The translations under genes were made by a program, and so were the position numbers. The notes below the pieces were generated by a model. The model saw only the letters and a program-made list of their open reading frames with translations. It had not been told where the DNA came from and did not search any database. Positions 42,606 through 64,000 of a DNA stretch of 64,000 nt are shown here, piece after piece; within the stretch, counting starts at the first letter, position 1; the number at the start of each line of letters is the position of its first letter. Source of the stretch: Candidatus Micrarchaeota archaeon (GTDB lineage: Archaea; Micrarchaeota; Micrarchaeia; Anstonellales; Bilamarchaeaceae); the NCBI GenBank assembly GCA_016212525.1, contig JACRGD010000007.1, forward strand, positions 15,112-79,111, read 5' to 3'.

Positions 42606-43358
42606 AAACGGATTATTCCCTGTCTTGATGTCAAAAACGGTCGGGTAGTTAAAGGCACTAATTTTGTTGGTCTTAAAGATGCCGGAGATCCGATCGAACT
42701 TGCAAGGAAATATTACGAAGACGGGGCAGACGAGCTGGTTTTTCTTGATATTACTGCTAGTAGTGAAGGTCGAAACACGGTAGTTGAACTAGCTAAAGCA
42801 GTTGCGCAGGAAGTCTTCATTCCGTTTACTATCGGTGGGGGCATTCGAACTATCAAAGATATTGAAGCGCTACTTAAGGCAGGAGCAGATAAAGTTTCCA
42901 TCAATACGGCCGCAATAGTTAATCCCAAACTGCTAACAGATGCGGCTTGTGAATTCGGAAATCAGGCCATCGTCATTGCAATCGATGCCAAACAAAACGA
43001 ATCAGGGAGTTGGAATGTTTACAAAATGGGCGGGTGCATTGACACTAACTTTAATGCCATGGAATGGGCAAAAAAGGCAGTTTCTCTAGGAGCCGGAGAA
43101 GTTCTTCTAACAAGCATGGATAGAGATGGAACTCAAAGTGGATTCGACATCGAGCTAACTCGTGCGATTGTTAAGGCTGTGAACGTTCCAGTTATTGCGT
43201 CAGGCGGTGGCGGAAAAGTCGATGACTTCATTAATGTTTTTCAAAAAACAAACGTTTCGGCAGCACTTGCAGCCGGAATTTTCCACTATGGAAAAATAAC
43301 AATTGGTGGCCTAAAAAAAGAATTAAAATTAGCGGGAGTTGATATTCGTGAAATCTGA
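42606..43358 (+). CDS. hisF: imidazole glycerol phosphate synthase cyclase subunit (start codon unresolved)
   Basis: in-frame translation from ~42597 gives [17 protein letters not shown]...AIDAKQ...SGGGGK, full-length HisF; the ORF track only reports the C-terminal 110 aa (43026..43358) because there is no in-frame ATG/GTG/TTG between the upstream stop (42549) and 43026. Confidence 0.8.
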
Positions 43359-48550: not shown

Positions 48551-48615
48551 AGACTAAACGAAGGACAAAAATATAAAGAATTAGGCTTGGGATTGAAAAA
48601 ATAGAAAAGAAAGAA

Positions 48616-49593: not shown

Positions 49594-50271
49594 CTAGAGG
49601 CGTCTCCAGCGATCAAGGGTTGCAAGAAGCATTCCAAAATCGGAAATAGTCGCATCTGCTTTGGACGAGCGACTATTTGCATATTTTCCAGAAAGTATGC
49701 GAATAGTTTTCATGCCGGCTTTCTTAGCTGGAATTATGTCGGCATCTTCTCGATCACCAATCATTAGCGACTCTGTTGGCTTGGCCCTTAGATTCGAGAG
49801 AATGCGCGTGAAAAAGAGTTCATCTTTGGAGCGACCGACATCTTCTGAAACAAAAACATCATCGAAAAAAAGTGCTATACTTAATCGAATGAGTTTATCC
49901 CATTGTTTAATCGACGTACCGTTTGTAGCGACATATAAATTGTAACCCTTTTGACGCAGATTAAGAAGAGTGCTTGGAACCTGAGGATAGGGGGCGATTG
50001 TTGTCTTGGTATCGTGATAAGCAGCGATAGCAGCAGAAACGAATTTAGCACTTTTTTTGATTTTTAGGGATTTGCACAAATCATCAAAATGATGAGTGTA
50101 ATTTGAACCCTTTTTTTGGATTATTTTTGAAAGAGAATGCTCGAGATCGGAATAGGTTGCATCTAAACCCATGCCAATCATTGCATTAATTGCGTTTTTT
50201 CTGGCCAAGGAACTAAAATCAGTAGTCGGAAAGAGGGTATCATCGATATCGAAGAAGATATTTTTTATCAT
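49594..50271 (-). CDS. HAD-superfamily hydrolase
   Basis: 225 aa; motif I FFDIDDTL, motif II TNG, motif IV GDREDADI. Confidence 0.7.
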   Translation of the reverse strand: MIKNIFFDIDDTLFPTTDFSSLARKNAINAMIGMGLDATYSDLEHSLSKIIQKKGSNYTHHFDDLCKSLKIKKSAKFVSAAIAAYHDTKTTIAPYPQVPSTLLNLRQKGYNLYVATNGTSIKQWDKLIRLSIALFFDDVFVSEDVGRSKDELFFTRILSNLRAKPTESLMIGDREDADIIPAKKAGMKTIRILSGKYANSRSSKADATISDFGMLLATLDRWRRL

Positions 50272-50302
50272 GAAAAAATAGAAAGAAAGAAATTAATAAA
50301 CT

Positions 50303-52801
50303 CTATTGATTGGACTCGACAAAGATAGTTGGAGTGTATCCTGTGCCAGTCTGTCTTGGAGAACGTGGTCTTCGTGCTCCTGCATCAGAAGGTACTGGGG
50401 CAGGAACTGCCGCCACTGGAACAACTACAGGAGCTGGAACCACTACCGGAGGCGCAACAACTGCAGGAACTGTGGTATCAGCAGGAACTGAAGAATCTAC
50501 TTGTACCGATGCATCTGCGCTTGGCAAAGGTGCACCTATTGGAGCGCCCAAGGGAACAGATCTACGCGGAGCAGATTCAACAACTGCCGGAGTTGGATGT
50601 GTTTGCGGAGTTCTTGTAGATTTCCACCAAATACCGAAAACACCACCGCCAAGTATTCCAACAACCACAGCAGCTACCCAGGCTTTAAAGGTTCTTGGTC
50701 TGGATGGCAACGCGGATGGATCAACCTCGACAGTGCTTTCTGGATCGACTATAGGGTCGGCGGGAGCTGATGGTGAGAAATCAGCCCTCAAAGTAGTCCC
50801 GTCTCGTGGGCTAGGTCTTTGGGCAACCGGTTCCGAACCAGTATTAGATGTGCCACGAACAGCTCTCGAGGGAGCACCTACAGCAAAGACCTCATCATCC
50901 CAAGGACCAGCCTTAGGGGATGCACGAGTTGTGGGTGGACTAACCGGAGCGTGCGGACCGCTCACGGATGCAGGACCCGGAAGAACACCACCTGGACCGC
51001 GTCTAGTTGCAGTATCTGATGCAACAGGAATCGGAGCAGGAGCCCTTGCTGGAGGCTCAGAACCAAAGGCACCACCCATCATCAGCGTACCACTTGGTGA
51101 TGGAGGTTCACGAAGCACTGGAACAGCTGCCTCATTTGAATTGAAAAGATTTAACCTTAGAAGTCTTCCAGGACCCACTAAAACCTGACCAGATAGTTTA
51201 TCAGTAACGTTAAACATATCCGAACGTCCGGTAATATAGTTCAAATGGAAGGGAGTTGAATCATGCCCATAAGTAACTACGTCAGAATCAGTGGCTATCA
51301 CAACCCGAGCACCAGTAGAATCAGAAAGCACATAGGGAACATTTGGAGCAATATCAGCCATGGATTTAGTTGCATTGACTACTTGCGCACCCCTAAGAAA
51401 TTCGATATTTGAACCCTCATCTGAGTTAGTAACTCGAACCACATCAGAACCAACTTTGGCATATTTAGTTTCGCCAATTTCGACCTTCAAAAAAGCATCG
51501 ACCCTGCCTCCAGAGAAAACAACAAACTCATTAGAACCATACCTAACCAGATTGAGACTAGCAGAAAGAGCAACTACAGTATTGGTATCTTCTAATTTGC
51601 ATTCATAAACAGAAGGACAACCTGATTTCTCTGCTACTTCTTCCAAATTTAGAAGACGAACTGAAACCTTATCAGGAAGACGTCGTGAAACCTCAACTGC
51701 ATAATCGTTACCCATCAAAGATAGTTTTGCATATCGAACTTCTTGGAAGTCAATGGATACCAACTGGTCAGGAGAGCCTAAAGCACAGACCTGAACTTCA
51801 TGGGCATTTGAGAAATAAACGTTCAAAGCAGGACCAAAATTCCTAGATTCACCAACAACCAAATCAGATTTGTTTGGCCGCTCAACTAGACAGTATGAAC
51901 CCTGCGAATCAACATATTCAGAAGTATAGACAACCCCTCTTAAAAGAGCCAAACCAGCTACATCATATTGAACAGAACCGCCGGGAGTGTCTGAAACATC
52001 AAAGTGATGGTCGCCACTACCAGTATAGACCAAATCAACATATCCCGAAGGAGATGCTGCCCTACCATCGCGTACAGGAGTTACCGTAGATGCAGTAGGT
52101 AAAGCAGGAGGAAGTTCATTTTCTGTCCAGACCGAATAATAACGAGTACCGGAGTTTTCCCATCCCAAAACATACGCATCAACACCTGCAGCCATGGCCG
52201 GAGGAACATAGGAAGCAAGTTTAGCTTCAAATACGGCCGGATGATCAGGAACAGAAGCAAGGAAATCCCCGTCTAATTCAGTTATAGTCACATCAGACCC
52301 AGAAGTATCAACATAGATACCCAAAGGCAATCGAACTCCATTTGTATATATGTTAGAGTCAGGAACAATTTCGGCCGGACCGTATCGATGAACAGTTCGA
52401 GTAACATCGACACTAAGTTCACCATTCTTAACAGTAAGCGTGGCATCAAAACCAGTATTACCATGACGAACAAGAATAGACGCTGAATCATTATTAGAGT
52501 TAACATCAAGTTCGGTTCTTGGAATTAGATCATCTAGATTCTTCAGGTAAAAAGGTACATAATTATTGGCAGAATCACGAAGTTCTACAGATCCGACTCC
52601 AGATGAAGTGACATTAGAACAAACAAGCTTCAAATCACCCGGCAAAGTACAGTATTCTTTTACTTCCAAGGATTTGCGAGTTGTTTCTGGACCAGCTGCA
52701 CGAGCAGCAGCAGCTAGAGGCGGAGGCAATGCCACATTACCACCAGTAACATGCGCTGGAACTTCAGAAGCAATTCTTGCACCTATTAATTTTTTTGCCA
52801 T
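50303..52801 (-). CDS. large membrane-anchored protein (single C-terminal TM helix, Pro/Val/Ala-rich tail)
   Basis: 832 aa; TM helix WVAAVVVGILGGGVFGIWW near the C-terminus followed by PAVVAPPVVVPAPVVVP repeats; no known domain. Confidence 0.6.
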   Translation of the reverse strand: MAKKLIGARIASEVPAHVTGGNVALPPPLAAAARAAGPETTRKSLEVKEYCTLPGDLKLVCSNVTSSGVGSVELRDSANNYVPFYLKNLDDLIPRTELDVNSNNDSASILVRHGNTGFDATLTVKNGELSVDVTRTVHRYGPAEIVPDSNIYTNGVRLPLGIYVDTSGSDVTITELDGDFLASVPDHPAVFEAKLASYVPPAMAAGVDAYVLGWENSGTRYYSVWTENELPPALPTASTVTPVRDGRAASPSGYVDLVYTGSGDHHFDVSDTPGGSVQYDVAGLALLRGVVYTSEYVDSQGSYCLVERPNKSDLVVGESRNFGPALNVYFSNAHEVQVCALGSPDQLVSIDFQEVRYAKLSLMGNDYAVEVSRRLPDKVSVRLLNLEEVAEKSGCPSVYECKLEDTNTVVALSASLNLVRYGSNEFVVFSGGRVDAFLKVEIGETKYAKVGSDVVRVTNSDEGSNIEFLRGAQVVNATKSMADIAPNVPYVLSDSTGARVVIATDSDVVTYGHDSTPFHLNYITGRSDMFNVTDKLSGQVLVGPGRLLRLNLFNSNEAAVPVLREPPSPSGTLMMGGAFGSEPPARAPAPIPVASDTATRRGPGGVLPGPASVSGPHAPVSPPTTRASPKAGPWDDEVFAVGAPSRAVRGTSNTGSEPVAQRPSPRDGTTLRADFSPSAPADPIVDPESTVEVDPSALPSRPRTFKAWVAAVVVGILGGGVFGIWWKSTRTPQTHPTPAVVESAPRRSVPLGAPIGAPLPSADASVQVDSSVPADTTVPAVVAPPVVVPAPVVVPVAAVPAPVPSDAGARRPRSPRQTGTGYTPTIFVESNQ

Positions 52802-52803
52802 AG

Positions 52804-54171
52804 TTAAGCACCCTCTTTAGGAACTATAGATATAAGTGTCTCGTATGCATCACGAATACTAGCAGCCAGATCAGCCATTGCATCAGGCTTAAGAACATGG
52901 GGAATCTGAACATGTTCAACTGGAAGAAGTTCATCTGTCTTCCTTGGATTAGGAACATTATCAGATGGAACGAACAAAGCATCCCCATAAGATCCCACAA
53001 CCAAAGCTGCAATTCTCATCATAGATGCAGAATTACCATAGGTCAAACTTCTTGCAGCTGCCAGTCCGGAATCTGGATGATTAGATAAAAAGTCTTGGAA
53101 CTGATCTCCATGAGAACGACCTCTACCATCATCAAGTGCGATTTCTACCAGTTGGCGATGTAACTCTAAATCAGAAAGATGTGGATACTCATGAACCATT
53201 TGAGGAGTTACAAACCTAGCTGCAATGGCCATAACATGTGCAACGGTTGTGGTTGAAAGCTGATCATAAAGAGTCTGCAGATCGCCAACTGATCCGGAAG
53301 TAATTGCAGCCGCGGCACTATCATATGCAGCAGGAGCAACAGCAGTTGAGACGTATCGATGAACATCAACAGCAAATGCAGGATCAAGGATAATTGAAAC
53401 CGCTCTATCTAGATTCATATAAGAAGCAACAGCACATAAATTAACATGATATTGCAACTGGTCAGAATAATTTGGATCTGCCGGATTCATACCAAGAAAC
53501 ACAGGAACGTGTGGATCGAGAGCTTGGGCCAAAGCCAATTTTCTTTCAGAAGCAGCAACCTGAGCCTTAAGATCTGCGACTTGGGTTACTAGAGCATCGT
53601 GTTTATCGACACGAGCAACTACTTCTCGAACAGCCTTTGCTACAACAGCCAAACGACTTTTTGAAGCTCCATCACGAGCAACAGCTTCAGTTCTCGTAAG
53701 TGCGGTACTAAGAGTATCGACACGAGCTGCTATATCGGAAACACGAGAAACTGCCTGAGTTACGGCAACAGGAACTTTAGGAACTACGACGTCATTTACA
53801 AACTCGCCAAATACAGATCTTGCTGTTATTGCTTCTTCAGTTCGCTCCTCAGCTGGTGCTCGCATAGCAGCGACTCCGGTTCTTGCAATGGCAAATAGAG
53901 CAGCGCCCAAAGTACTACGAACACTTCGTTCATCCTCAGAAAGATCAGTAGCACCAACCAAACGAGTAGCTGCAGAAACAGTGAGAGAAATTACACTAGA
54001 GGCAAGAACACCTCTCATGCTTGGAACAGATTTATCATCTGCATCAATAGAATCTGAACCACGAACATCTCCTGCAGCTCGAGCAAATGTCTTTACTAAT
54101 TTTAGAGCATCGTTGAACTTACCTATTTCCTTCGGATTCGTAATAACCGGTTTTGTTGTAGTAGCACTCAT
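52804..54171 (-). CDS. Ala-rich hypothetical protein
   Basis: 455 aa; no known motifs; start is 12 bp after the stop of the upstream gene. Confidence 0.55.
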   Translation of the reverse strand: MSATTTKPVITNPKEIGKFNDALKLVKTFARAAGDVRGSDSIDADDKSVPSMRGVLASSVISLTVSAATRLVGATDLSEDERSVRSTLGAALFAIARTGVAAMRAPAEERTEEAITARSVFGEFVNDVVVPKVPVAVTQAVSRVSDIAARVDTLSTALTRTEAVARDGASKSRLAVVAKAVREVVARVDKHDALVTQVADLKAQVAASERKLALAQALDPHVPVFLGMNPADPNYSDQLQYHVNLCAVASYMNLDRAVSIILDPAFAVDVHRYVSTAVAPAAYDSAAAAITSGSVGDLQTLYDQLSTTTVAHVMAIAARFVTPQMVHEYPHLSDLELHRQLVEIALDDGRGRSHGDQFQDFLSNHPDSGLAAARSLTYGNSASMMRIAALVVGSYGDALFVPSDNVPNPRKTDELLPVEHVQIPHVLKPDAMADLAASIRDAYETLISIVPKEGA

Positions 54172-54183
54172 ATTTCATCCCCC

Positions 54184-56562
54184 CTATACAGATTTTATTT
54201 TATCAAGATCAGTTTCAGTTAATGCCTCTGAATTGACAAAGATTGCTTCACCAAAGGCAACAAAAACAGTCCTAAACGCAGTTGCAAATGCAGCAGGATC
54301 GGATTTAGAACCCTCCAGACCAGTCATACGCGTAGCAACCTGGGCAGCATCAATATCCCCGTGAGAAGTTGCAACTTGACCAAATGCCCTCAATTTGCCA
54401 AATAATCCATCGACCGGACTACCACCATTGGTTGGTTTTTGGAGTTCGGTAATCAGTGCAGCAGGAATTTCTGTTCTTCCACCTGAACTGGAATTGGATA
54501 AGATCTTAGCCAATCGAGCAGAAGTAAAGAACCCATCAACTGCAGTTGCTAATGCAGTTACCGGAGTCATATCGACAACTGGAGCCGGAGCGGCTTTTAC
54601 AGAAGGATCTGAAACCAACTGATCTCCAGTAACTTCAACTTTGAAACGTGGTTTGTTTGATTCAGAAGTTCCCAGATAAGTGACTTTTACGGTTCGTTTT
54701 GTGTAACCACCAGTTTCGAAAGTGTGAGACTCACCAACTACAAGCGAGTTCTGGGTTTTACCAACTCGCTCGGTTCGCGCAGTTGGATCAAAAGAACTGC
54801 CATTTGTCTTGGCATAAGTATAACCTAATGCAGTAAGTACACCGGCAGGATCAAAATCCTTGGATTTTACTTCCAAAGACAAATCAGCACGTCCAGGAAT
54901 GGCCAAACGAACCCAGTCAGATCTGGAAGCAGAAGCAACATCGAAGACCATTTCGCAAGTAGATGGTTCGGTCGTTATTACAGGACCAGATGGCGCTTTA
55001 ACAGCGGCCGGAGCAACAGCTGACTTAGCAGGTTCGGGTGCTCTTGCAGCTTCGGCTCTTGCTTCAACCCGAGCAGGAGCAACTGGAGGTGCTGCTAATT
55101 CAGATGGAGCTGGAGTTCGTACCGCTGCAACTCGTGCTTCGAATTCTTGGATTCGACGCTGTAAGTCAGCTTCGGCCTCACTAAGAGCTCGCTCTCGCTT
55201 ATCCAATGCGCCCAATCTTTGGTTAGCAGCTTCTAATCGAGCTTCAGCTTCAGAAGCAGCAGTTAGAGCAGCAGATTTTCTTGCATCAGCCGAATTAGCA
55301 GCTTCAACTGCAGCAGTCTTTCTTCCTTCCTGTTCATCGGCTTCAGCTTGAGCAGCACTTCGTCTTAACTCTGCAGCAGAAGCAAGACCACTCATTTGAG
55401 TCAAACTCTCATTCGCTTCATCAATTTTAGCAGTAACAGCAGACAAAGCAGATCGTTTTTCACCAAGTGCAAGCCCGAGAGCAGCATCTGATGTTCGACC
55501 TTCAAGTAACGTTCTTTCTAAATTTTCGACTTCAGCCTTAAGAGCATCACGTTTGCCTTCCAAACTAGCAACCTCAGAAGTAAGAGCAGTTGAAGGTCTT
55601 AATGGAGCACGTGGAGGTTTTGGTTTTTGAGGTATCTCAACTGGAGCAAGCATCTGAGAAACATCCAATGGCATGTCAATAGATGTAACTTCAATTGCCA
55701 TCACCGCAGATACAACTGCATCAGAACGTACTGATTCTGAACTTGGCAAAGGAGCCGCAGATGGAAGAGAAGCCAAAAACTCAACAGGAGAAACTACATC
55801 TGGATAATTGCCAGCAGGTAATGGTATTTCTGATCCGGTAAGTGGATTGTTGAGCAAGTCAGAAACATCCTTAATTGAAGAGGTGGCACCATCTAAAGCA
55901 GCTACAGCAGCAGCAGATGCAGCGAGTTGAGCCTCTAATCTTCTACGAACAGTATCAGTTTTTTTTATGGCAGCAGCAACTTCGCCAACAAGTCTTTTCT
56001 TTAACTCACTAACCTCGCCATCGAGTTCTAATCTTCGAGCATCAAGAGCATCACGATCTTTTTCATAAGCAGCAGAAACAGTTTCTCTTTCTCTTGCAAG
56101 TGAAGATTCAGCAGCGATCAAAGCATGAAGAGTCGCAGTGGCAGAAGTAAAAATTTCAGAACCTAAATCAGAGAGAGCCGTGCCGGAAATAGACTGAGGT
56201 TGGGAACTTCCCTCAACATTCAGTACAAAAGTAGCATCGATAGCAGCAGCAACAAGGCCGGGAAGTCTATCTGCATTGAATAGATCAGTGTCTACCTCCA
56301 CAGGACCTGATGAAACAGAACGTATTGGAGTTGTGGGTTTTGGAACGCCTTCGGGAAGTTGTTCTCTAACGGCCAAAACGGAATTGATTGCGGGGCTTAG
56401 TCTAGCTGCCAATTCAGCAGCTGCAGCCATGGCACCAAGACGAACACCATCTTCCAAAAGACCAGTTAAATGTTCATTTAGCTTTGCGCCTGAACCCCTA
56501 GGAACATATTTAACAGCAGACGACGGACCTTTCAAAACCATAGACGTATTTTTTTCTGACAC
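54184..56562 (-). CDS. Ala-rich coiled-coil protein
   Basis: 792 aa; about 350-aa central region of heptad-like Ala/Glu/Arg/Leu repeats (SMC-like coiled coil) flanked by non-repetitive domains. Confidence 0.55.
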   Translation of the reverse strand: MSEKNTSMVLKGPSSAVKYVPRGSGAKLNEHLTGLLEDGVRLGAMAAAAELAARLSPAINSVLAVREQLPEGVPKPTTPIRSVSSGPVEVDTDLFNADRLPGLVAAAIDATFVLNVEGSSQPQSISGTALSDLGSEIFTSATATLHALIAAESSLARERETVSAAYEKDRDALDARRLELDGEVSELKKRLVGEVAAAIKKTDTVRRRLEAQLAASAAAVAALDGATSSIKDVSDLLNNPLTGSEIPLPAGNYPDVVSPVEFLASLPSAAPLPSSESVRSDAVVSAVMAIEVTSIDMPLDVSQMLAPVEIPQKPKPPRAPLRPSTALTSEVASLEGKRDALKAEVENLERTLLEGRTSDAALGLALGEKRSALSAVTAKIDEANESLTQMSGLASAAELRRSAAQAEADEQEGRKTAAVEAANSADARKSAALTAASEAEARLEAANQRLGALDKRERALSEAEADLQRRIQEFEARVAAVRTPAPSELAAPPVAPARVEARAEAARAPEPAKSAVAPAAVKAPSGPVITTEPSTCEMVFDVASASRSDWVRLAIPGRADLSLEVKSKDFDPAGVLTALGYTYAKTNGSSFDPTARTERVGKTQNSLVVGESHTFETGGYTKRTVKVTYLGTSESNKPRFKVEVTGDQLVSDPSVKAAPAPVVDMTPVTALATAVDGFFTSARLAKILSNSSSGGRTEIPAALITELQKPTNGGSPVDGLFGKLRAFGQVATSHGDIDAAQVATRMTGLEGSKSDPAAFATAFRTVFVAFGEAIFVNSEALTETDLDKIKSV

Positions 56563-56677
56563 TCATCCCACCTCAATACTTAGCGAACCACGACGTTTAT
56601 CGGGGCTCGCAACATAAACATTATTGTTATTATCAGTATAAATATGTGTAATCCTCTATTTAAACCTTTCTAACACC

Positions 56678-59600
56678 TTAGAAGTGCCTAAATTCGAAGT
56701 TAAGACGCCCACCAGTTCCAAACTCCATACTCAATTGAACATGCTTGTTTGCTACATCAGGGCATACGCCCGAAGCATATAGTGCATTATCACTCGCACG
56801 GACAAATGTATTGACCGAAGGGTTAAAGGAACCCATACCCAGATGGTTGGAATATACAAATACACCACCTTCAGAACCGGTCATACCATACAAGCTAAGT
56901 TTAGTTGCAACATCCGATTCGTTAACTCCGACTCTACCCGCACCGCAGGTTAGAGTCTGAAGAACACCACCCTGAATAAAGGAAACCGCAATGCTTACAG
57001 TCACTGGATCAGAACGCCAGAGTTTAGCGTTGAGCTCGTTAAGCTGTCGGTCTGCAAGACCAACTATACCAATGACATCGTTCATTGATCCCACCCAGCC
57101 CAATGTTGCAGCCATTTCAAATGAAGATTTTATCATTCCTACAGTCTGTGCACAGAAAACACTATCGGGTTGTCCAGATGATGCGTGCACCACTAAGTCC
57201 AGATTGATAACAGGAAGGGCATCAATAGTCAACGAAAGACGCGAACGATCTTTGAAGGGTGAATTATCAAAGTCGGCAGAAGAATTTCTTGGAGTGGTGG
57301 AGAATCCAACTCGCTCGACTGGGACATAGCCCATAAATTCCAAAAGACAAATGAGTTCGAGCTCAGATGCTGCTGCACCAGCAACAGAAACATTATTCTC
57401 ATATCTGACTTTGGTAAGGGCAGCAGTAACACTGGAAGAATTTGCTTTAATTAACTCGAACCCAGCATCGACCGGGTTAAGAGAAGGTGCATAATTTGCA
57501 ATACCAGTCAAAAACACATCCTGATAGCCAGTCTTATACGAAGCAAATTCAGAGCTCTTTAAGAAGGCAAGCTTCTCTGCGAGACTTGGTTCATCAAGCG
57601 CACATAAGGAATACAGTCTTTCTTTTGCCAAGCGGGCTCGCTCATATCGGGTAGCCGCAGGAACACTCGCATCACCACTACGGATTCGCTTTGCTGATAC
57701 AAGACTAAGAAGAAATTCACGCTTTGCCGGAGGCATATCTAGGAATTCCTGAATTTGAGCCGCTGAAACATCCGAAGAAGCTCCCGAAGCAGATTCACCT
57801 TTGTTTGTAGCCAGAACAACTGCAATCAAATCCTTTTCAGATACAGACATTTCAGCAATCATTCGCTCTGGAGTCTTTCTTCGAACTATTGCAAGGGCAA
57901 GCTCGGATAAAGTAGAATCGAATCGCTCGGTAGGCACACTAGCTGCAACGTTTGCAAGAACATACATCGCATCCATAGTAGAACTATAATATGGACCAGT
58001 TAGACTAGGTCTCCCACGTACATAGCCATCTTTTAAGGCGGCAACATAGCGTCTTGAGAGGGTTTGTGCACGATTAACCTCACGAGACTCGGACATCGGA
58101 GCAAAAACATAGGCCACTGCAGAGGAAGGAGGGAATGATCCATCAGTTACGCCAGCAAGACGGGCAACAATATTCATAATAGATCGGGCACTATCGGCAC
58201 GAACTGGAAGATGAACCGCAGCTGAGCTAGTAAGGACTTTTCCACCAGCATAGGGAGCTTCCAGATCGCCTAAAAGTGAATCGAACGAGGAAACTGCAGC
58301 ATCCAGTCTAGTTCTATAGGCAAGGCGTTTAGTTTTAGCAGCAACCCCAAGCAGAGGTTTGTTAAAGACGCCCGCAAGATCAGGATTCTTAACGATCGCT
58401 TCATTATTCATTGCAATAGCCAGTGCGTATCGCGGATTCTGGGCATAGTCAAGTCCGAAAGCAGAAACATCATAAGCATGCAATTTATCGAAACCAGCAT
58501 TGATGCGAACACTGGCAGAAAGCAGTGCTGAAATATCGGAATTAAATTCTGCATCGGCAAGAGAATGCTCAGTGGGCCCAACAATACCAGTTGCCCAGCC
58601 CTCATAAACAGCTGAAGGAGTCATTGTTCCGATTGTTCCCGCGTGTCGATACCATTTATCTTCATAACGATAAGCAACAAAAGAGTAAACTTTTGCGGAT
58701 TTAGAATCGGTTTTGGGTTTTACTACCCGAACCGGAACAACTGGAACCTTAGTTCCGTTTGGAAGAATCATAACCAAAGGTTTTCCTATTGAAACAGTTT
58801 TACCGTTGACAGAGAGGTCATTATTAGAATCAAAGGTAAAGCAGTCTGCATTTTGGGTTGCTAAAGTTGCAAGTTTTGCCTCTTCACCAGACCTCCAGCC
58901 GCCATCTGCAGGAGTTTCTCCAAAGTCAGCATGCATAAGAATTGAGAATCTCTGAGCTACCCCTGCACGCGCCTGTTTATAGGTCGCATCAAGAGCAGAG
59001 CGAACTGCACCCGTATTTGGAGTCTGGGATTCTAGCATCTTAAATGCAACTAAATAATCTGCACCAGTTGCCTTGGCCATGAATTCAGCAGCAAGACCAA
59101 AATTAGTCTGCCTGAAAACGGAATTTCTCAATTTCAAATCAAAGCTGGATGGGGTAGTACGAGCAATTGGATTGTAATCATGAATAATGGCACATAGTTG
59201 AGTGTAGGCAGGAGAGTTTGGAATTGCTTCTGCTGCTGCATCTGCCGAAAGGCGATCTACCCGATTTACAGCCAGTGCAGCTTCTTCGTATGCTTCAACG
59301 GCCGCAACGAACCGGTCGACAAATGGCTTGGATTCAGGCGCAGTAAAATGAGTCCTTACGAAATCAATAACATCAAGAGAATCCTCATTCGCCGCACCAT
59401 TAAGAAGGAAGTTAGATCTAAAGTGTTGCGACTCGACAATTGGAACTGTTGCAGCAGCAAGCTCTTTGGCTTTTTGAGTAAGAGCGGCTTTGAGTTTTGC
59501 CTGATCTGGAGATAACCGAGTTATATTAGTACGAATATCAGAACGGGCACTGGCATAACCATCAGCGACCGGGGTTGTTCCATCATTAACTAAAATAGAA

Positions 59601-60817
59601 ATAACACATTCTAATTTTTCAGAAAGCGATCCCGAACTGGGATATCTTCGGTGAAGTACATTATTCGCAACGTTGTCAGTAGCGTTTGAGGTAAACCGAT
59701 GTTGACCTCGCATATGAGCATCAAGAGAAGCAACTACTGCGGAAGCAAAAACAGCCAGATCGAAATTAACAGCACGACCACTAGTACTTTCAGCAACTAC
59801 ATACCCGGGTTCAGAAAGAAGCGATCCATCGGAAGCTCGCTTTGTGAGTTTGAAACCAAGGAAATTTCTCGCGGCAGAAGTTGTCATTTGCTCTGGAGTA
59901 ATAGGGGTTGCAGCTACTGGTTTATGAGCAGGACGGGCAACTGGAGCTGGAGCGGGTGCTACGGGAGCTGGAGAAACCGGAGCTGGCGCGGGAGAAACGA
60001 ATCCAGTCGGAGGATGCAAAACATCAACACCAGGTGGGGCAGGAGACGGAGATCTAGGAGCAGCAGGCAGAGTAGGTTGCTCGAAATCGATGACTTCGGG
60101 AGGAGATGCAGGCGCAAACGAACCAGACCCGGAAGGAACGACAATAGAACCAGAATTAGAAGCGGAAACTGGATGTAATGAACCTGTAGTAGCTGCATCA
60201 TCAACTAAAGTATCGGGCTCAGCTGCAGGTTCCGAACCAGGTCTTCGTCTTCGCACATCAGTAGCTTCATCATCCCGAACAACGCGGACTGGAAGTCCTT
60301 CTCCGGGAATTACCGGAGCACCAGGAACTCGATCCACACGAAGAAGAGAAACGCCTGGGCTGGCAGGTTCATCTAGAACCGGAGGTTGCTCAGCTGAAAA
60401 CGGAGGAGTAAATGGAATTGGAGGACGAACGACATAAGGATCAGATGGAGTTGCCGCACGATTTGGTTGTGAAAACCCGACAAGACCCATGACAAGCCCA
60501 AGTCCGGAATTGGGACTTATAGGCCCAGCTGGAGATAATGAAGATGCTGGAGGAACTAAAGAAGCACGAGCAGCATCATCAACCGCAGTAACATCATCAG
60601 GACCCAGATCAACAGGAAGAGGCGGCGGTCCTCGAGTTTCTTGAGGAGTAGGGGAAACGGGAACTGGCGCAGTAGAGGGAGGGTTTGCTTCATGCAGAGA
60701 AGCTGCCTTTGCAGAGCGAATCTGACGAACAAAAGAATCAGTTGCAGCTCTAAATGGATTGAGTGGATGACCATACCTTACATCACGACTATTTCTATAT
60801 CTAACCATAAATATCAC
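56678..60817 (-). CDS. giant hypothetical protein with Pro-rich disordered N-terminal region
   Basis: 1379 aa; first ~300 aa Pro/Ser/Ala-rich (PAPAPVSPAPVAPAPAPVARP); the remainder is not repetitive and has no known motif; start overlaps the upstream gene by 4 nt. Confidence 0.6.
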   Translation of the reverse strand: MIFMVRYRNSRDVRYGHPLNPFRAATDSFVRQIRSAKAASLHEANPPSTAPVPVSPTPQETRGPPPLPVDLGPDDVTAVDDAARASLVPPASSLSPAGPISPNSGLGLVMGLVGFSQPNRAATPSDPYVVRPPIPFTPPFSAEQPPVLDEPASPGVSLLRVDRVPGAPVIPGEGLPVRVVRDDEATDVRRRRPGSEPAAEPDTLVDDAATTGSLHPVSASNSGSIVVPSGSGSFAPASPPEVIDFEQPTLPAAPRSPSPAPPGVDVLHPPTGFVSPAPAPVSPAPVAPAPAPVARPAHKPVAATPITPEQMTTSAARNFLGFKLTKRASDGSLLSEPGYVVAESTSGRAVNFDLAVFASAVVASLDAHMRGQHRFTSNATDNVANNVLHRRYPSSGSLSEKLECVISILVNDGTTPVADGYASARSDIRTNITRLSPDQAKLKAALTQKAKELAAATVPIVESQHFRSNFLLNGAANEDSLDVIDFVRTHFTAPESKPFVDRFVAAVEAYEEAALAVNRVDRLSADAAAEAIPNSPAYTQLCAIIHDYNPIARTTPSSFDLKLRNSVFRQTNFGLAAEFMAKATGADYLVAFKMLESQTPNTGAVRSALDATYKQARAGVAQRFSILMHADFGETPADGGWRSGEEAKLATLATQNADCFTFDSNNDLSVNGKTVSIGKPLVMILPNGTKVPVVPVRVVKPKTDSKSAKVYSFVAYRYEDKWYRHAGTIGTMTPSAVYEGWATGIVGPTEHSLADAEFNSDISALLSASVRINAGFDKLHAYDVSAFGLDYAQNPRYALAIAMNNEAIVKNPDLAGVFNKPLLGVAAKTKRLAYRTRLDAAVSSFDSLLGDLEAPYAGGKVLTSSAAVHLPVRADSARSIMNIVARLAGVTDGSFPPSSAVAYVFAPMSESREVNRAQTLSRRYVAALKDGYVRGRPSLTGPYYSSTMDAMYVLANVAASVPTERFDSTLSELALAIVRRKTPERMIAEMSVSEKDLIAVVLATNKGESASGASSDVSAAQIQEFLDMPPAKREFLLSLVSAKRIRSGDASVPAATRYERARLAKERLYSLCALDEPSLAEKLAFLKSSEFASYKTGYQDVFLTGIANYAPSLNPVDAGFELIKANSSSVTAALTKVRYENNVSVAGAAASELELICLLEFMGYVPVERVGFSTTPRNSSADFDNSPFKDRSRLSLTIDALPVINLDLVVHASSGQPDSVFCAQTVGMIKSSFEMAATLGWVGSMNDVIGIVGLADRQLNELNAKLWRSDPVTVSIAVSFIQGGVLQTLTCGAGRVGVNESDVATKLSLYGMTGSEGGVFVYSNHLGMGSFNPSVNTFVRASDNALYASGVCPDVANKHVQLSMEFGTGGRLNFEFRHF

Positions 60818-63030
60818 CGATTGGACCTCTCAGAAATTTTCCGAATTTGTCTTTGTATCTGATCGGAAATTGATGAGGGATTAGCAGAATCATACATTGA
60901 GCGGATGTCACAAACTGGAAGTAAAAGTTCTGGAGGAAGTAAAAGTAAATCTCCTTTATAGTAGGAAGAAAGATAATAGAGCGTCCGGAACAACACGCGG
61001 TCAGTTCCAGAGGGAAGAGAGGTTTCTAAATCAGATGGAGCTGGAATTGAACCAAAAATATCCCAAAGAGAAACAGTTGTACCTCCAGGCGCTAACCCGC
61101 TTAGGTAGGCAAGTGAAACTGTAGCCCGGAAAAGAGCAGTATGTAAATCAGATCCGGTTTTACCACGAATAAGGGGCATATATGGTTCATAAATCTGTGG
61201 ATATGCATCAGCAGAAGTCGCATAGCTGAAAAGATCTCGGGCGATAACAGACGCAACAGCGCAGAAGGGACCGTTGAAGCGACCGTTGGGGTAAAACTCC
61301 TGGACTATAAAAGCCTCGAAGGATAGATCAGAAGAACTAGTAGCAAGGTACCCATAGTTTCCTTTAGATTTGGAAGTACCAATCTGGAGTGAATTAGAAA
61401 CAGTCAAAGGCAACTCGAATTCCCTAATTGGAGCAGGGGCAGTAACTTCGCCCCGTGAGAGGGCAGTTGCAGTAGAATATGCGTTTCTAAGGATATCAAT
61501 TCGACGAAGATTACAGGACATGTCGCGCGTGTCTGCTGCACCTCTCTCGCCAACTACATAGCGCAAATGCTCATCATCTGAGCCAAGCGGATCGATAACT
61601 AAAATTCCACCCACTGAATTGGTATAGAGTGTCGCCAGCCCGCCATCAACGCAAATTACCCGGCCGCGAGTGCGATCGGTTCGGCCTTCATGAACATCAA
61701 GAATCTTTCGCGCTCTTCTATGGCCAACATAAAAAGTATATGAACCCATTTGGGTGAGCCACGATGAAAGAGCAGAATCAAGAGACCATGCAGCAGGAAG
61801 TTTTCCCGGTAGTTGAACGGGTTCACTGTGATACATCATCGAATAGTCCCTCTTAGTTACAGCCAGAGCATGAGAACGGGTTTTAGAAGACACATCTATA
61901 TCAGCCCAGGAACAGAAAAGTGCAGTTGTACCTTTAGAATCGCCAAGCAAGTTTGCAAAATAATCATCTAATGCATCAATAGAATCGACAGAAAGTACCG
62001 GCCCTCCGTGGATAAAGAGAGCGTCATCGATCCGTATTGCTGCCTTGGTAGAGCGAACAAAATCCAATGTTCCATCCCTCTCCATTTCCTCGCATGCAAA
62101 TCTCCAGAGGTCCATCTCGCCATGATCAACAAGGTATGAAAAAGAGGATCGCTCACGAAGGAGAAAGTTTGCTAGCGAACGAGGATCATAACCGATCAAA
62201 GCGCGGGTTCGATCACATGCCGCTTTATCTTCATCATAGGCATCTTTGAATTTTTTCTCATACGAGCGAAGAATTGAATCCAGCGTATTGGAATCGAAAA
62301 GCTTTCCGATACCAGAATCGTTTATAGCTTTATCAGCAGGACCAAATAATTTGAATTCCTTCCAGGCGGAATTGAGATGACTTAGATCCAAAACAACGCG
62401 AAGTAGATATGAAAAATCATCAGCATTTGCAAAGATTTCGCGGACCTTATCAAGTGGAGTTGTCCTAAGGAGTTCGACTAAGCGCAGGAACATTGCCTCG
62501 TGATTTCCCCGAAGAGTATGAATGCGAATTTTGCCATCGGTTTCATCAGCCTGACATTGGAGATCCTGTACAAAGTCTAATACGTCCATGCCTTCTGTCC
62601 CGCGATCAACATAATCGCCCGCAAAGACGATTTGGGTTCCTTTGGGCAGATCAGTATTCAAAGAATATCGCTCGAAATAGGGGGCAGTGGGGTCAGATCC
62701 CAGATTGGCCACGATGACACCGGCTTCCATAAGTTCGCGAACTAACTCTTTTGCGTCTCCCTGGACATCTCCTATGACATAAATACGGGAGGCGTTGGAA
62801 ACTCGATCAATAGTTTGACCCGATCGGTAAGTAGGTTCTATTTTATTTAGATGATCAGCATAGGGATTGATTTTAGAATTTGTAATTTTGGGCTTCGCGT
62901 CTTTTCTGGTTCTCCAATAAGCCCTATAAGCACAGATTGCAGGAGTGTCAGCAATACCAGCACCGGAAATGTTAAGACTTCGATAAAGCCGACCATAAGG
63001 ACTAGTATGCTTCAACAATCTTCCACCCAT
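60814..63030 (-). CDS. PPP-family Ser/Thr phosphatase-like metallophosphoesterase fused to a ~400-aa unknown C-terminal region
   Basis: 738 aa; GDVQGD...GDYVDRG...GNHE motif series of calcineurin-like/PPP phosphatases in the N-terminal third. Confidence 0.65.
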   Translation of the reverse strand: MGGRLLKHTSPYGRLYRSLNISGAGIADTPAICAYRAYWRTRKDAKPKITNSKINPYADHLNKIEPTYRSGQTIDRVSNASRIYVIGDVQGDAKELVRELMEAGVIVANLGSDPTAPYFERYSLNTDLPKGTQIVFAGDYVDRGTEGMDVLDFVQDLQCQADETDGKIRIHTLRGNHEAMFLRLVELLRTTPLDKVREIFANADDFSYLLRVVLDLSHLNSAWKEFKLFGPADKAINDSGIGKLFDSNTLDSILRSYEKKFKDAYDEDKAACDRTRALIGYDPRSLANFLLRERSSFSYLVDHGEMDLWRFACEEMERDGTLDFVRSTKAAIRIDDALFIHGGPVLSVDSIDALDDYFANLLGDSKGTTALFCSWADIDVSSKTRSHALAVTKRDYSMMYHSEPVQLPGKLPAAWSLDSALSSWLTQMGSYTFYVGHRRARKILDVHEGRTDRTRGRVICVDGGLATLYTNSVGGILVIDPLGSDDEHLRYVVGERGAADTRDMSCNLRRIDILRNAYSTATALSRGEVTAPAPIREFELPLTVSNSLQIGTSKSKGNYGYLATSSSDLSFEAFIVQEFYPNGRFNGPFCAVASVIARDLFSYATSADAYPQIYEPYMPLIRGKTGSDLHTALFRATVSLAYLSGLAPGGTTVSLWDIFGSIPAPSDLETSLPSGTDRVLFRTLYYLSSYYKGDLLLLPPELLLPVCDIRSMYDSANPSSISDQIQRQIRKISERSNR

Positions 63031-63229: not shown

Positions 63230-64000
63230 TTATTCCAAAAGAAGAGTTTTTATCTGATAATCACCAATTAAGATAGTTTCAAACTGATTAAATTCGCTCA
63301 ATTGAATTTTTGTCTTTGAATTTCCTCCAATTTCAATCACAATTTTCTCTCCATTAATATTGACTATATAGTCGGGAGATTTTTTAGCTCCCTTTAGAGT
63401 ATTAACCACTCCACCTATCGATTCTAAACCAAATAAAACTGATTCTTCCCGTATGCTTCCGATATCAAAAGGAACGTGCAATTGCCTGCATATGGCAACC
63501 CTCAAATTAGGATGAGTAAATAATATTTTAGGTTCTGCACGGATAAGTTTTGCCCCCCTGGCATATGGAAGAATTAACCGGATCACTTTCATTTCTTCCA
63601 AAACTTTCACAATTTCTGCCACAGATGTTTTTGAAATACGCAGATTATTTGATAAAGAGGAAAGACTTAGTTCACCTGGCGGCGAAGTTGCAAGTCGTAT
63701 TAAGAGCGATTCCATGGCATGAGTTTTTTCTAACGATAATTTTGTTATGGAAACACTATCTTCCCTTACAGATTTACGAATTGTATTGAAAATAGAATTG
63801 AGTGCATCGTCTTTATTATAATTTAAAGAAACAGGAAACCCACCGATTTCAACATACTCTTTATAGGCACGTTCAACATCATCGTTTTTTGCAACAAACT
63901 CAAGTGATTTGTCCCGATCGATCCAAAGATTTTTGGCCTCTTGCTCTTTTGCGTATTTAATATACAAAAATTCTCTTAGAGTCATAGGCAGGATAGTGTA
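63230..64000 (-). CDS. COG1373/DUF4143-family ATPase, C-terminal part (gene continues beyond right window edge)
   Basis: ORF 63230..63985 has an open frame upstream to the window end (YTILP precedes the first Met); DUF4143-like domain; second member of this family in the window. Confidence 0.6.
   Translation of the reverse strand, partial: YTILPMTLREFLYIKYAKEQEAKNLWIDRDKSLEFVAKNDDVERAYKEYVEIGGFPVSLNYNKDDALNSIFNTIRKSVREDSVSITKLSLEKTHAMESLLIRLATSPPGELSLSSLSNNLRISKTSVAEIVKVLEEMKVIRLILPYARGAKLIRAEPKILFTHPNLRVAICRQLHVPFDIGSIREESVLFGLESIGGVVNTLKGAKKSPDYIVNINGEKIVIEIGGNSKTKIQLSEFNQFETILIGDYQIKTLLLE

Follow-up and report, generated by a model that had tools for sequence, protein, structure and literature searches.

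Identification of the phosphatase gene

Does a phosphatase gene whose stop codon overlaps the start of a gene for a much larger protein act together with its neighbor, or is its position incidental? We considered this question for a 64,000-nucleotide stretch (hereafter, the window) of a Candidatus Micrarchaeota assembly (GCA_016212525.1, contig JACRGD010000007.1). A sequence-only reading had proposed a PPP-type phosphatase, translationally coupled to a 1379-aa protein, that regulates or processes the giant proteins encoded downstream. That reading took the host to be AT-rich and archaeal, and it is indeed an archaeon with ~40% GC.

The 738-aa open reading frame is a real gene, as its best homologs reach E-values down to 1.5e-51 against 1.84 billion proteins, which is far beyond chance. 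Its start is uncertain by 4 codons, with another gene caller using a TTG at 63018 to give 734 aa. Upstream of the ATG, the TATA-like sequence TATTAATATAAA is a putative archaeal promoter of the operon. Coordinates of all features are given in Table 1.

Table 1. Features of the phosphatase gene and its operon, in window coordinates.
Feature	Coordinates	Strand	Basis or details
PPP-type metallophosphoesterase gene, 738 aa	60814..63030	-	ORF; Metallophos E 2e-8; homologs down to E 1.5e-51
TATA-like element TATTAATATAAA	63042..63053	-	12-23 nt 5' of ATG; read from sequence
Catalytic PPP-fold domain, ~residues 65-500	61531..62838	-	Family alignment, AF2 model, Foldseek
Motif I GDVQGD, residues 87-92	62755..62772	-	Base-by-base check and alignment; D88 metal ligand, Q90 in place of canonical His
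Motif II GDYVDRG, residues 138-144	62599..62619	-	D139 bridging ligand, R143 first Arg of phosphate clamp; G138, D139, R143, G144 invariant
Motif III GNHE, residues 175-178	62497..62508	-	Invariant in family alignment
Helical insert ("cap"), ~150 aa, ~residues 185-330, between motifs III and IV	62041..62478	-	AF2 secondary structure
Motif IV IHGGP, residues 340-344	61999..62013	-	H341 invariant
Motif V VGH, residues 435-437	61720..61728	-	H437 invariant; aligned with VGH of Shewanella PTPase
VDGG, residues 461-464	61639..61650	-	Counterpart of bacterial-type (I/L/V)D(S/T)G; D462 invariant
Conserved post-domain segment, ~residues 503-527	61450..61524	-	Family consensus DFTxGRxRxxVLxNxIS.AA
C-terminal helical domain, ~residues 570-738	60817..61323	-	AF2 pLDDT 50-76
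Junction of cistrons 1 and 2	60814..60829	-	GAGGT 60829-60825, 7 nt, GTG 60817-60815 overlapping stop TGA 60816-60814
Second cistron, 1379 aa	56678..60817	-	~300-aa Pro/Ala/Ser-rich N-terminus, then ~1,060 aa with no recognizable domain; orphan
Third cistron, 792 aa	54184..56562	-	16.8% Ala; weak coiled-coil-type matches; GAGGTGG before GTG start
Fourth cistron, 455 aa	52804..54171	-	GGGGGGAT 5 nt before ATG
Fifth cistron, 832 aa	50303..52801	-	Val/Ser/Thr-rich region, Pro-rich linker, one transmembrane helix; GAGGGTG before ATG
Transmembrane helix of 832-aa protein, residues 704-726	50624-50692	-	
T-rich stretch after last stop codon	50272..50302	-	Likely operon transcription end; putative terminator

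Catalytic domain and predicted structure

The proposed PPP-type domain was borne out by matches to Pfam (Metallophos, residues 82-207, E = 2.1e-8, above the curated cutoff), PHROG, Foldseek, and the family profile. The PHROG matches included a "NinI-like Ser/Thr phosphatase" (3e-13) and an "RNA ligase" multidomain family, and weak NCBIfam matches were found to the bacterial Pnkp phosphatase domain (6e-8) and ApaH (7.8e-5). The family profile matched the Shewanella PTPase (2zbm/2z72/1v73) at 1.7e-12, which was better than its match to PP2A. An AF2 model that used the family alignment as input (pLDDT 71.5, pTM 0.65) had pLDDT mostly of 84-97 at residues 61-200 and 251-360, and lower values (60-91) at residues 361-500. 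Searching this model with Foldseek returned 1v73 as the top match (2e-7), followed by calcineurin, PP2A, and PP5.

Motifs GDYVDRG and GNHE were present as claimed when verified base by base. However, the catalytic part is not confined to the N-terminal third, because motifs IV, V, and VDGG come after the helical insert, the C-terminal half of which is conserved across the family. What had been described as a ~400-aa unknown region is mostly the remainder of the catalytic domain, and just ~200-240 C-terminal residues are without assignment. Here, the conserved post-domain segment and a linker lead into a ~170-aa helical C-terminal domain, which had no Pfam match. Residues ~596-676 weakly resemble a collinear segment downstream of the phosphatase module in four giant relatives (blastp E-values of 5e-4 to 8e-3 in an 81-protein database).

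The family alignment shows no variation at eight catalytic positions (D88, D139, R143, N176, H177, H341, H437, and D462) or at the family-specific residues W375, D395, and W415, and Y400 is nearly invariant. Between motifs IV and V, we saw no conserved residue corresponding to the second Arg of the "two-arginine clamp" of bacterial PPPs. The bacterial-type motif to which VDGG corresponds was defined previously (PMC535813). Judging from these features, the product is probably a soluble, active, two-metal phosphatase of the bacterial-like (Shewanella-like) PPP branch. By itself, the enzyme is ordinary and resembles bacterial-type protein phosphatases.

Glutamine at motif I

The catalytic alignment departed from the expected motif series at a single site, where the "GDxxGD" of the earlier reading conceals a Gln at the canonical metal-ligand His of GDxHG. 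This position could be located in 63 homologs, 60 of which retain His, and Gln was found only in P0001/P0079. Such a replacement of the canonical metal-1 ligand might indicate a catalytically impaired pseudo-phosphatase, in which the fold survives to bind phosphate or metal or to act as a scaffold for the large partners. We consider this improbable, since the other catalytic and metal residues are all intact and the identical Gln is kept, along with all other motifs, in a relative at just 29% identity. Furthermore, the active ADPRibase-Mn family of metallophosphoesterases conserves D[V/I]Q, with the carbonyl of Gln27 binding metal 1, and its Q27H swap altered kcat/Km only 11-27-fold (PMC4334965). 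By analogy, DVQ at motif I appears compatible with catalysis, and most likely alters metal or substrate handling rather than abolishing activity.

Organization of the operon

The phosphatase is the first of five cistrons, the other four of which encode products of 1379, 792, 455, and 832 aa (3,458 aa in total). As the earlier reading held, the 1379-aa ORF lies directly next and overlaps the phosphatase gene by 4 nt, although the overlapping sequence is GTGA rather than ATGA. Tight coupling of the two genes was upheld by the GAGGT Shine-Dalgarno-like element 7 nt before the overlapping GTG. The frame of the second cistron is open merely 4 codons 5' of this GTG, and its first ATG, the 4th codon (60808), is the start used in the NCBI annotation, which gives 1376 aa. 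All four internal starts are preceded at 5-7 nt by a GAGGT(G)-type or G-rich (GGGGGGAT) element, and the reading frames of the operon genes are closed 0-5 codons 5' of each start. Separately, a 25-nt element (family D13) similar to the T-rich stretch after the last stop codon lies 3' of the 293-aa gene.

All five genes are alike in their unusual composition (GC1 of 0.54-0.63 and GC3 of 0.22-0.35), which differs from that of neighboring host genes. The four downstream proteins are Ala/Pro/Ser-rich, with an Ala content of 10-17% versus 8.3% in the phosphatase, and they had no detectable homologs, neither among the giant relatives nor elsewhere. No signal peptides were found in the five-gene set, and its one transmembrane helix is predicted to anchor the 832-aa protein in the membrane. 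No protein kinase motif was found within the window.

It is conceivable that the phosphatase is an independent regulatory or housekeeping enzyme that came to precede the four large orphan genes by coincidence, for instance if a foreign or fast-evolving cassette landed downstream. A second promoter, serving the last three genes, could lie in the 115-nt AT-rich spacer that separates the 792-aa gene from the 1379-aa gene, and the partner genes lack homologs anywhere that would show co-occurrence. The 4-nt overlap with its well-placed GAGGT and the shared, atypical codon-position composition argue against this alternative, on which the relatives described below also bear.

Compositional difference from the neighboring genes and orphan, fast-evolving products would also fit a cassette carried by a mobile element or virus, or a set of effectors that this episymbiotic archaeon delivers to its host cell, with the phosphatase as a toxic or manipulative enzyme. 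An Orc1/Cdc6 gene flanks the region, as do two AAA_14-DUF4143 (PDC-S01) ATPase genes (one an incomplete 251-aa copy), and giant proteins serve host interaction in other DPANN lineages (PMC10266531). However, att-like flanking repeats and an integrase were both absent, and the cassette had no PHROG or PADLOC matches besides the phosphatase domain and one weak LmuB match to the 792-aa protein, in its coiled-coil region. A scan of viral contigs gave generic phosphatase relatives only, and GC3 is equal to or below that of host genes. Given also the lack of signal peptides, the single transmembrane helix, and the conserved chromosomal location of the family's giants (see below), we find delivery as mobile or effector cargo highly doubtful.

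Relatives and giant proteins

An exhaustive homolog search recovered ~23 strong relatives (n = 23 at E ≤ 1e-10). The family is small, and every member with a named organism (5/5) belongs to Micrarchaeota. In most strong relatives, the phosphatase is an internal module of a large protein of ~1,460-7,250 aa, and this module is the sole block common to all giants. Metallophos was the sole domain recognized by Pfam in the five long members scanned. A simple hydropathy scan revealed essentially no transmembrane segments in the giants, and no signal peptide was evident by eye at their N-termini. Our full-text literature search found no description of Micrarchaeota giants carrying a phosphatase module. 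Giants of the family occupy a conserved chromosomal locus adjoining ribosomal protein genes. The giants evolve fast. Where two of them share a syntenic locus, the proteins on either side are 55-71% identical, but the two giants can be aligned only in patches of 31-43% identity.

The closest homolog, P0001/P0079 (29% identity), is a stand-alone gene of 509-525 aa without the C-terminal domain. It is flanked by housekeeping genes, DsbB on one side and PRC/RNase HII on the other, with ribosomal genes also nearby, and has no large neighbor. This arrangement is what would be expected of an independent enzyme. Nevertheless, in most other members of the family the module is joined to very long sequences, and the C-terminal domain that is missing in P0001 weakly resembles segments of the giants. 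Weighing these observations with those from the operon, we judge independence from the downstream genes to be unlikely. Two further relatives show split arrangements, with co-directional or overlapping neighbors. P0005 is part of a series of overlapping genes and shares 4 nt with one whose product starts with a transmembrane helix, while ORFs of 1567, 122, 271, 114, and 823 aa precede P0013 in the same direction. A crude neighbor-joining tree grouped the 738-aa protein with P0001 near the family base, a placement compatible with either fission or fusion.

Accordingly, the link claimed between the phosphatase and the large downstream proteins is partly supported. It holds at the level of the family, through embedding of the module in giants, and at one other locus at least (P0005), with its similar gene chain. 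Its support is only partial because the closest stand-alone homolog sits among housekeeping genes.

A proposed role for the phosphatase

We give an even chance to the explanation that an active phosphatase works in complex with its large operon partners, with the operon being a split counterpart of the giant proteins. Whereas the module is otherwise mostly embedded in giants, here it is a separate cistron at the head of an operon, which would make the operon a multi-subunit counterpart of the single-chain giants. The phosphatase would be co-produced with its partners from an operon having its own putative promoter and Shine-Dalgarno-coupled internal starts. Its C-terminal domain would probably dock onto the large partners, after which the enzyme would dephosphorylate them or a target bound by them. 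In this manner, the phosphatase may regulate or process the downstream proteins, as originally suggested. The four partners have no detectable similarity to the giants, and hence the only arguments for equivalence between operon and giants are those of composition, size, and gene order.

Relatives of the fold also hydrolyze Ap4A, RNA ends, and ADP-ribose, so protein is only a putative substrate of the 738-aa enzyme. The substrate might instead be dinucleoside polyphosphates, RNA 2',3'-cyclic or 3'-phosphate ends, or ADP-ribose-type nucleotides, rather than a protein phosphorylated on Ser, Thr, or Tyr, and this would be compatible with the link to the operon. The Pnkp, ApaH, and "RNA ligase" matches point in this direction, as do the conserved motif-I form that DVQ shares with the nucleotide-hydrolyzing ADPRibase-Mn family and the lack of a conserved second clamp Arg. 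The large helical insert between motifs III and IV is likewise suggestive, since ApaH presumably has a comparable cap. On the other hand, the best sequence and fold matches are all protein phosphatases (Shewanella PTPase, PP2A, calcineurin, and PP5), none of the Pnkp and ApaH scores comes near the cutoff of its family, and GDxxDRG and the bacterial-type D motif are PPP features. Hence, a non-protein substrate seems a minority prospect, and we favor a protein phosphatase.

Comparison with known systems

The best solved relative by both sequence and fold is the prototype of the Shewanella-like PPPs (Shelph/SLP), a cold-active protein-tyrosine phosphatase from Shewanella sp. (PDB 1V73, 2Z72, 2ZBM). 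It matched at E = 0.006 when the single protein was the query, at 1.7e-12 when the family profile was used, and at 2e-7 in Foldseek. Both proteins have GDxxDRG, GNHE, HGG, VGH, the bacterial-type xD(S/T)x, a Trp before motif V, and inserts relative to eukaryotic PPPs. They are only ~15% identical, and motif I is DxH in the Shewanella enzyme but DVQ here. Relative to that enzyme, the 738-aa protein has a helical insert that is ~100 aa longer, an additional C-terminal helical domain, and relatives embedded in giants.

Lambda phosphatase/NinI-like proteins (PHROG 246), ApaH, and Pnkp are alike in the N-terminal subdomain with motifs I-III, where only ~100 residues match. The Pnkp and ApaH matches fall far under their equivalog cutoffs (31 versus 750 bits and 22 versus 176 bits, respectively). 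Kinase and ligase domains are absent from the 738-aa protein, which is also unlike these three in size and architecture. Similarity to ADPRibase-Mn, an active Mn2+-dependent enzyme with D[V/I]Q at motif I (PMC4334965), concerns how the site may work rather than membership. Neither by sequence nor by fold was that family matched specifically, whereas the 738-aa protein has the PPP-specific GDxxDRG and its best matches are PPP enzymes.

A PPP phosphatase in an archaeon had been considered notable, but PPP-family enzymes are already established in archaea, including PP1-arch1/2, Py-PP1, and "BacterialPPP-like" sequences (PMC535813, PMC8249667). PP1-arch is eukaryotic-like and lacks the bacterial (I/L/V)D(S/T)G Asp, which is present in the family of the 738-aa protein (D462). 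PPPs are reported to be rare in DPANN, with Kerk et al. 2021 recovering just three sequences from this group, and Euryarchaeota supplied nearly all of the bacterial-like archaeal PPPs in that study (PMC8249667).

Giant proteins are also known from the DPANN lineage Nanohaloarchaeota, in which the lineage-specific SPEARE proteins reach up to 9,409 aa and are thought to be important for symbiosis (PMC10266531). The features of SPEARE proteins include a Sec signal peptide and a membrane anchor, together with Ig/fibronectin-like domains and a VirB4/TraG-like ATPase (PMC10266531). In contrast, the Micrarchaeota giants are essentially without transmembrane-like segments in a simple hydropathy scan, have no signal peptide evident by eye, and, in the five long members scanned, carry the PPP phosphatase as their only Pfam-recognized domain.

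A divergent PPP phosphatase domain in w738

The sequence-only reading had placed a PPP-type phosphatase at this locus, and an open reading frame of that kind, w738, is indeed present there. The domain search proposed at the time recovered the Pfam family Metallophos (PF00149; calcineurin-like phosphoesterases) over residues 82-207 (E 2.1e-8), at 35.2 bits against a gathering cutoff of 21.5. In its homologue P0001, residues 92-420 covered model positions 2-188. PHROG 246, annotated as 'NinI-like Ser/Thr phosphatase', matched w738 at 3e-13. NCBIfam equivalog cutoffs were not reached for the Pnkp phosphatase domain (31.3 versus 750 bits) or ApaH (22.1 versus 176 and 15.2 versus 222.85 bits).

All five metallophosphoesterase motifs are present, four of them canonical and motif I a variant (D88-V-Q90). 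The PPP signatures GDXXDRG and GNH(E/D) both occur, as GDYVDRG and GNHE, and the signature GDXHG is unmatched because w738 reads GDVQG (definition in PMC535813). Two elements of the GDxxGD/GDYVDRG/GNHE series initially reported stand as described, and the first is GDVQGD, with the metal-ligand His replaced by Gln. The same reading confined the phosphatase to the N-terminal third and considered the remaining ~400 aa motif-free, which proved incorrect, as motifs IV and V and a VDGG motif lie further on.

Features of w738, its operon, the surrounding window and related loci. Coordinates refer to the window unless a protein or another locus is named.
Feature	Location	Strand	Sequence or size	Remarks
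w738 gene	60814..63030	-	738 aa
Five-gene operon	50303..63030	-	738, 1379, 792, 455, 832 aa
Stop of w738	60816-60814	-	TGA
Start of 1379-aa gene	60817-60815	-	GTG
Element at 1379-aa gene	5-7 nt 5' of start	-	GAGGT	Shine-Dalgarno-like
Element at 792-aa gene	5-7 nt 5' of start	-	GAGGTGG	Shine-Dalgarno-like
Element at 455-aa gene	5-7 nt 5' of start	-	GGGGGGAT	G-rich
Element at 832-aa gene	5-7 nt 5' of start	-	GAGGGTG	Shine-Dalgarno-like
Motif I	w738 residues 87-92		GDVQGD	family alignment
Motif II	w738 residues 138-144		GDYVDRG	checked base by base; invariant in family alignment
Motif III	w738 residues 175-178		GNHE	checked base by base; invariant in family alignment
Motif IV	w738 residues 340-344		IHGGP	H341; family alignment
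Motif V	w738 residues 435-437		VGH	G436-H437; family alignment
Bacterial-type D motif	w738 residues 461-464		VDGG	D462 invariant; family alignment
Conserved post-domain segment	w738 residues, about 503-527
Helical C-terminal domain	w738 residues, about 570-738
hisF	42552-43358	+
AAA_14-DUF4143 gene, complete copy	44900-46177	-		PDC-S01, E 2.6e-98
Orc1/Cdc6 gene	46310-47539	-
Cys-rich protein gene	48616-49497	-	293 aa
T-rich element, two copies	48594-48618; 50271-50295	-	TAATT(T)CTTTCTTT(T)CTATTTTTTCA	25 nt
AAA_14-DUF4143 gene, partial copy	63230-63985	-	251 aa	model positions 156-375 only
ORFs antisense to operon	53888-54364; 54860-55351; 56276-56617; 59699-60178; 60090-60437	+
Giant, locus L007	12-14279
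Giant, locus L170	9335-27859
Small proteins, locus L006	5029-5565; 7309-8283			downstream of a giant
Small proteins, locus L007	14292-14831; 14901-15884			downstream of a giant

The (I/L/V)D(S/T)G motif is found in bacterial-type PPPs and absent from eukaryotic/archaeal-type PPPs (Andreeva and Kutuzov, PMC535813). Its counterpart in w738, following motif V and corresponding to Asp202 of lambda phosphatase, is V461-D462-G-G. In the Shewanella PTPase, the Asp of a VDSS segment falls in the D462 column, and the S/T position varies (A, V or G) within the w738 family. A helical insert of ~150 aa separates motifs III and IV. R143, the first Arg of the two-arginine clamp of bacterial-like PPPs, is invariant in the family alignment; between H341 and H437, where the second (R162 in lambda phosphatase) would be expected, the sequence alignment showed no conserved Arg. 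The motif IV-V region does contain family-specific positions, with W375, D395 and W415 invariant and Y400 nearly so.

AlphaFold2 modeling from w738 as a single sequence was unusable (pLDDT 33.6) and required the family alignment, which gave a mean pLDDT of 71.5 and pTM of 0.65. Confidence was high at residues 61-200 and 251-360, and lower, mostly >60, to about residue 530. When the model was compared to the PDB with Foldseek, the Shewanella cold-active protein-tyrosine phosphatase ranked first (2e-7), followed by calcineurin, PP2A and PP5. There were 49 fold matches at E ≤ 0.001, and all 50 among the matches listed were PPP phosphatase catalytic chains. The family profile also had the Shewanella enzyme as its best sequence match (1.7e-12), aligned over motifs I, II-III, V and the D motif. 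Taken together, the motif alignment, predicted fold, and structural and profile matches show that the catalytic domain spans about residues 65-500 and place it on the bacterial-like side of the PPP family, with the Shewanella-like enzymes. The identity of w738 as a divergent, new member of a known enzyme class is near-certain. A conserved segment follows the domain, and then come a linker modeled with low confidence and a C-terminal domain that is helical.

Glutamine in motif I and catalytic competence

We next consider the metal-ligand His of canonical GDxHG, which is Gln (Q90) in w738. Among homologues where this position could be located, it is His in 60, and nearly all of the very long Micrarchaeota proteins described below (giants) have His. 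Gln occurs only in w738 and its closest relatives, the stand-alone genes P0001 and P0079. Aligning the catalytic residues, as the sequence-only reading had suggested, thus found all but this one retained. Replacement of a metal ligand could signify a pseudo-enzyme, which we regard as a minor rival. Against it, P0001/P0079 share the Gln at 29% identity to w738, yet keep all other catalytic residues, which favors selection rather than decay. Moreover, D[V/I]Q is the conserved form of motif I in the active ADPRibase-Mn family; there, metal 1 is bound by the carbonyl of Gln27, and a Q27H swap shifted kcat/Km only 11-27-fold (PMC4334965). Because the Gln is retained in relatives of only 29% identity and has this precedent, w738 is probably an active enzyme, although it may handle metal or substrate differently. 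With it, PPP motif I gains a naturally occurring DVQ form.

In most relatives the phosphatase module is embedded in giant proteins

When 1.84 billion representative proteins were searched exhaustively with HMMER, w738 had 78 matches at E ≤ 0.001, with 23 at E ≤ 1e-10. In blastp alignments to the homologues P0001-P0018, the matched part of w738 ranged from residues 37-485 up to 74-692, at 26-32% identity and E values of 1e-27 to 1e-58. We defined the module as a ~450-aa collinear match including the cap and the family-specific W375, D395 and W415, a definition that w738 fits. In most of the strong homologues, the match lies inside a very long protein, with lengths including 4755, 7252, 4349, 2980, 4502, 5846, 4783, 6948 and 6174 aa. 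Named family members are all from Micrarchaeota: MFH0884322.1, MCI0504168.1, MBD3390004.1, VVC04782.1 (Candidatus Bilamarchaeum dharawalense) and the window genome. The giants among P0002-P0018 range from roughly 2,000 to 7,250 aa.

Pfam recognized Metallophos alone in the five long members scanned. Giants are essentially without transmembrane-like segments and rich in Ala, Arg and Glu. An all-against-all comparison of giants revealed the ~500-aa phosphatase module as the only block common to all, and residues 596-676 of w738, within its C-terminal domain, weakly matched a collinear segment in four of them (E 5e-4 to 8e-3, small database). Two giants, P0002 and P0013, occupy one syntenic locus beside RTC, NAC, S3Ae, S15 and Ham1. 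There, flanking proteins are 55-71% identical, whereas the giants align in just three patches at 31-43% identity. Such conserved neighbors around divergent giants mark the giants as chromosomal, vertically inherited and fast-evolving. The window shares no synteny with the RTC-NAC-S3Ae-S15 loci.

Two different giants are each followed immediately by two conserved small proteins, of about 178 aa (32% identity) and about 325 aa (68% identity). In locus L006, a 293-aa ORF is similar to the C-terminal end of giant P0002.

Other searches added little to the family. The word-indexed homologue search gave no matches with w738 as query and two generic phosphatases only with the family alignment. Scanning genome contigs for w738 relatives yielded one distant bacterial match. 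Metagenome and viral scans with generic GDxxDRG/GNHE patterns recovered ordinary phosphatases, among which there were neither family members nor operon homologues. In the literature searched, we found no account of the giants and nothing linking Micrarchaeota to metallophosphoesterases or giant phosphatase proteins.

w738 heads a five-gene operon

Five co-directional ORFs fill the operon. A TATA-like element lies 12-23 nt 5' of the first ATG, a T-rich run follows the last stop, and a 115-nt AT-rich spacer that could contain an internal promoter precedes the 792-aa gene. We considered whether the operon might be a broken giant pseudogene. This was ruled out by the Shine-Dalgarno-like or G-rich elements at every internal start and by reading frames closed 0-5 codons upstream of each, which indicate cistrons translated separately instead of the remains of one degenerated giant gene. 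Although in one frame, the 792- and 455-aa ORFs are split by two stops (TAG, TGA) and a G-rich ribosome-binding site. A programmed -1 frameshift joining the 738- and 1379-aa ORFs is unlikely, as their frames overlap by just 4 open codons and contain no slippery heptamer. The stop/start overlap noted previously at this junction exists, as GTGA rather than ATGA. The first ATG of the 1379-aa ORF is its 4th codon, and NCBI places the start at this ATG, which results in 1376 aa.

All five genes are unusual in composition in the same way (GC1 0.54-0.63, GC3 0.22-0.35), which accounts for the slightly raised GC of the region; overall GC is about 40%. Ala makes up 10-17% and Pro 4.8-9.6% of the four downstream proteins, and Ala makes up 8.3% of w738. 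Long ORFs antisense to the operon are most likely by-products of its Ala/Pro-rich coding strand (high GC1, low GC3), not genes. The N-terminal about 300 residues of the 1379-aa protein are Pro/Ala/Ser-rich, the 792-aa protein has weak coiled-coil-type matches only, and the 832-aa protein has a single transmembrane helix (residues 704-726).

No homologues of the four downstream proteins were detectable among the giants, the fetched loci, PDB, Pfam, PHROG, NCBIfam or PADLOC. The word-indexed search with the 1379-aa protein matched only itself, which left no relatives for the co-occurrence analysis that the sequence-only reading envisaged. The operon was rejected as a defense system, given that PADLOC left the 738-, 1379-, 455- and 832-aa proteins unmatched and paired the 792-aa protein weakly with the coiled-coil-type LmuB (E 8e-4). 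It was also rejected as a repeat-bounded integrated element, since att-like repeats were not found. We sought a kinase partner in the window and found no HRD-type motif.

Genomic surroundings

The window belongs to a Candidatus Micrarchaeota archaeon MAG and lies on a contig of 377,554 bp. Its genes carry locus tags HY990_02430-02445, and the Logan assembly of SRR12113407 contains the same region. Neighbors of the operon include a histidine-biosynthesis operon and Orc1/Cdc6, the latter 3 kb away between a PDC-S01 ATPase gene and two orphan genes. On either side of the region lies an AAA_14-DUF4143 ATPase gene, the two being paralogues assigned to the PADLOC candidate system PDC-S01; the partial copy is N-terminally truncated or runs past the window end. 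The hisF gene is one intact frame with no ATG/GTG/TTG start before 43026 and an out-of-frame ATG at about 42583. As a consequence, gene callers give only a 110-aa C-terminal fragment, which points to a non-canonical start, 5' frameshift or assembly error. The 293-aa protein near the operon has 14% Cys, an N-terminal hydrophobic segment and a weak, sub-threshold DUF5885 match, and is probably secreted or membrane-bound. Copies of a T-rich element, possibly a shared terminator or promoter element, sit just past the stops of the 293-aa and 832-aa genes.

Does the phosphatase act with large partners?

The sequence-only reading tied w738 closely to its large neighbors. In support, the module is fused to very long polypeptides in most relatives, which is classical evidence of joint function. 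w738 itself is a separate cistron rather than part of a >2,000-aa protein, and the next four cistrons total 3,458 aa. These cistrons have no homology to giant flanks; however, the flanks are unconserved even between giants, so this dissimilarity is not strong evidence against equivalence. Other members also show split arrangements: P0005 (898 aa) belongs to a series of overlapping genes and has a 4-nt overlap with a gene starting in a transmembrane helix, and P0013 has co-directional ORFs of 1567, 122, 271, 114 and 823 aa upstream. The giant of locus L005 is broken by a frame change. Counting against the link, P0001/P0079 (509-525 aa) lie between DsbB and PRC/RNase HII housekeeping genes and have neither the C-terminal domain nor a large neighbor. 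A crude neighbor-joining tree groups w738 with P0001 near the family base, a placement compatible with either fusion or fission.

On balance, we put at even chances the proposal that the operon encodes a large assembly of several proteins in which w738 is the phosphatase subunit; the association of w738 with the partners, like its substrate, is something we infer. The w738 gene alone is a modest find because its enzyme class is well known, and the novelty lies in the family context. This PPP subfamily is rare, with about 23 strong representative clusters among 1.84 billion proteins. In most members, the module is the sole recognizable and sole universally conserved part of fast-diverging giants. 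What sets w738 apart is its DVQ motif, its long cap insert and its membership in a Micrarchaeota family otherwise built into giants.

DPANN archaea live in dependence on host cells, an interaction for which their largest genes are foremost candidates. A lineage-specific Micrarchaeota system can be imagined in which signal-peptide-less, fast-evolving giants (2,000-7,250 aa), or operon-split equivalents like the five genes here, have a Shewanella-like PPP as their sole conserved catalytic core and serve to interact with the host archaeon or to manipulate it. Conflict or recognition would drive the evolution of their variable flanks, and the phosphatase would act on host or partner phosphoproteins. 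We judge this scenario improbable as a whole. The module offers a defined, assayable enzymatic handle on otherwise opaque giants, and the split operon supplies tractable parts in the form of a 738-aa enzyme and separate partners. The Micrarchaeota giants differ in kind from the SPEARE proteins of nanohaloarchaea, the known DPANN giants, in which a signal peptide and a membrane anchor occur together with Ig-like domains and a VirB4-like ATPase (PMC10266531).
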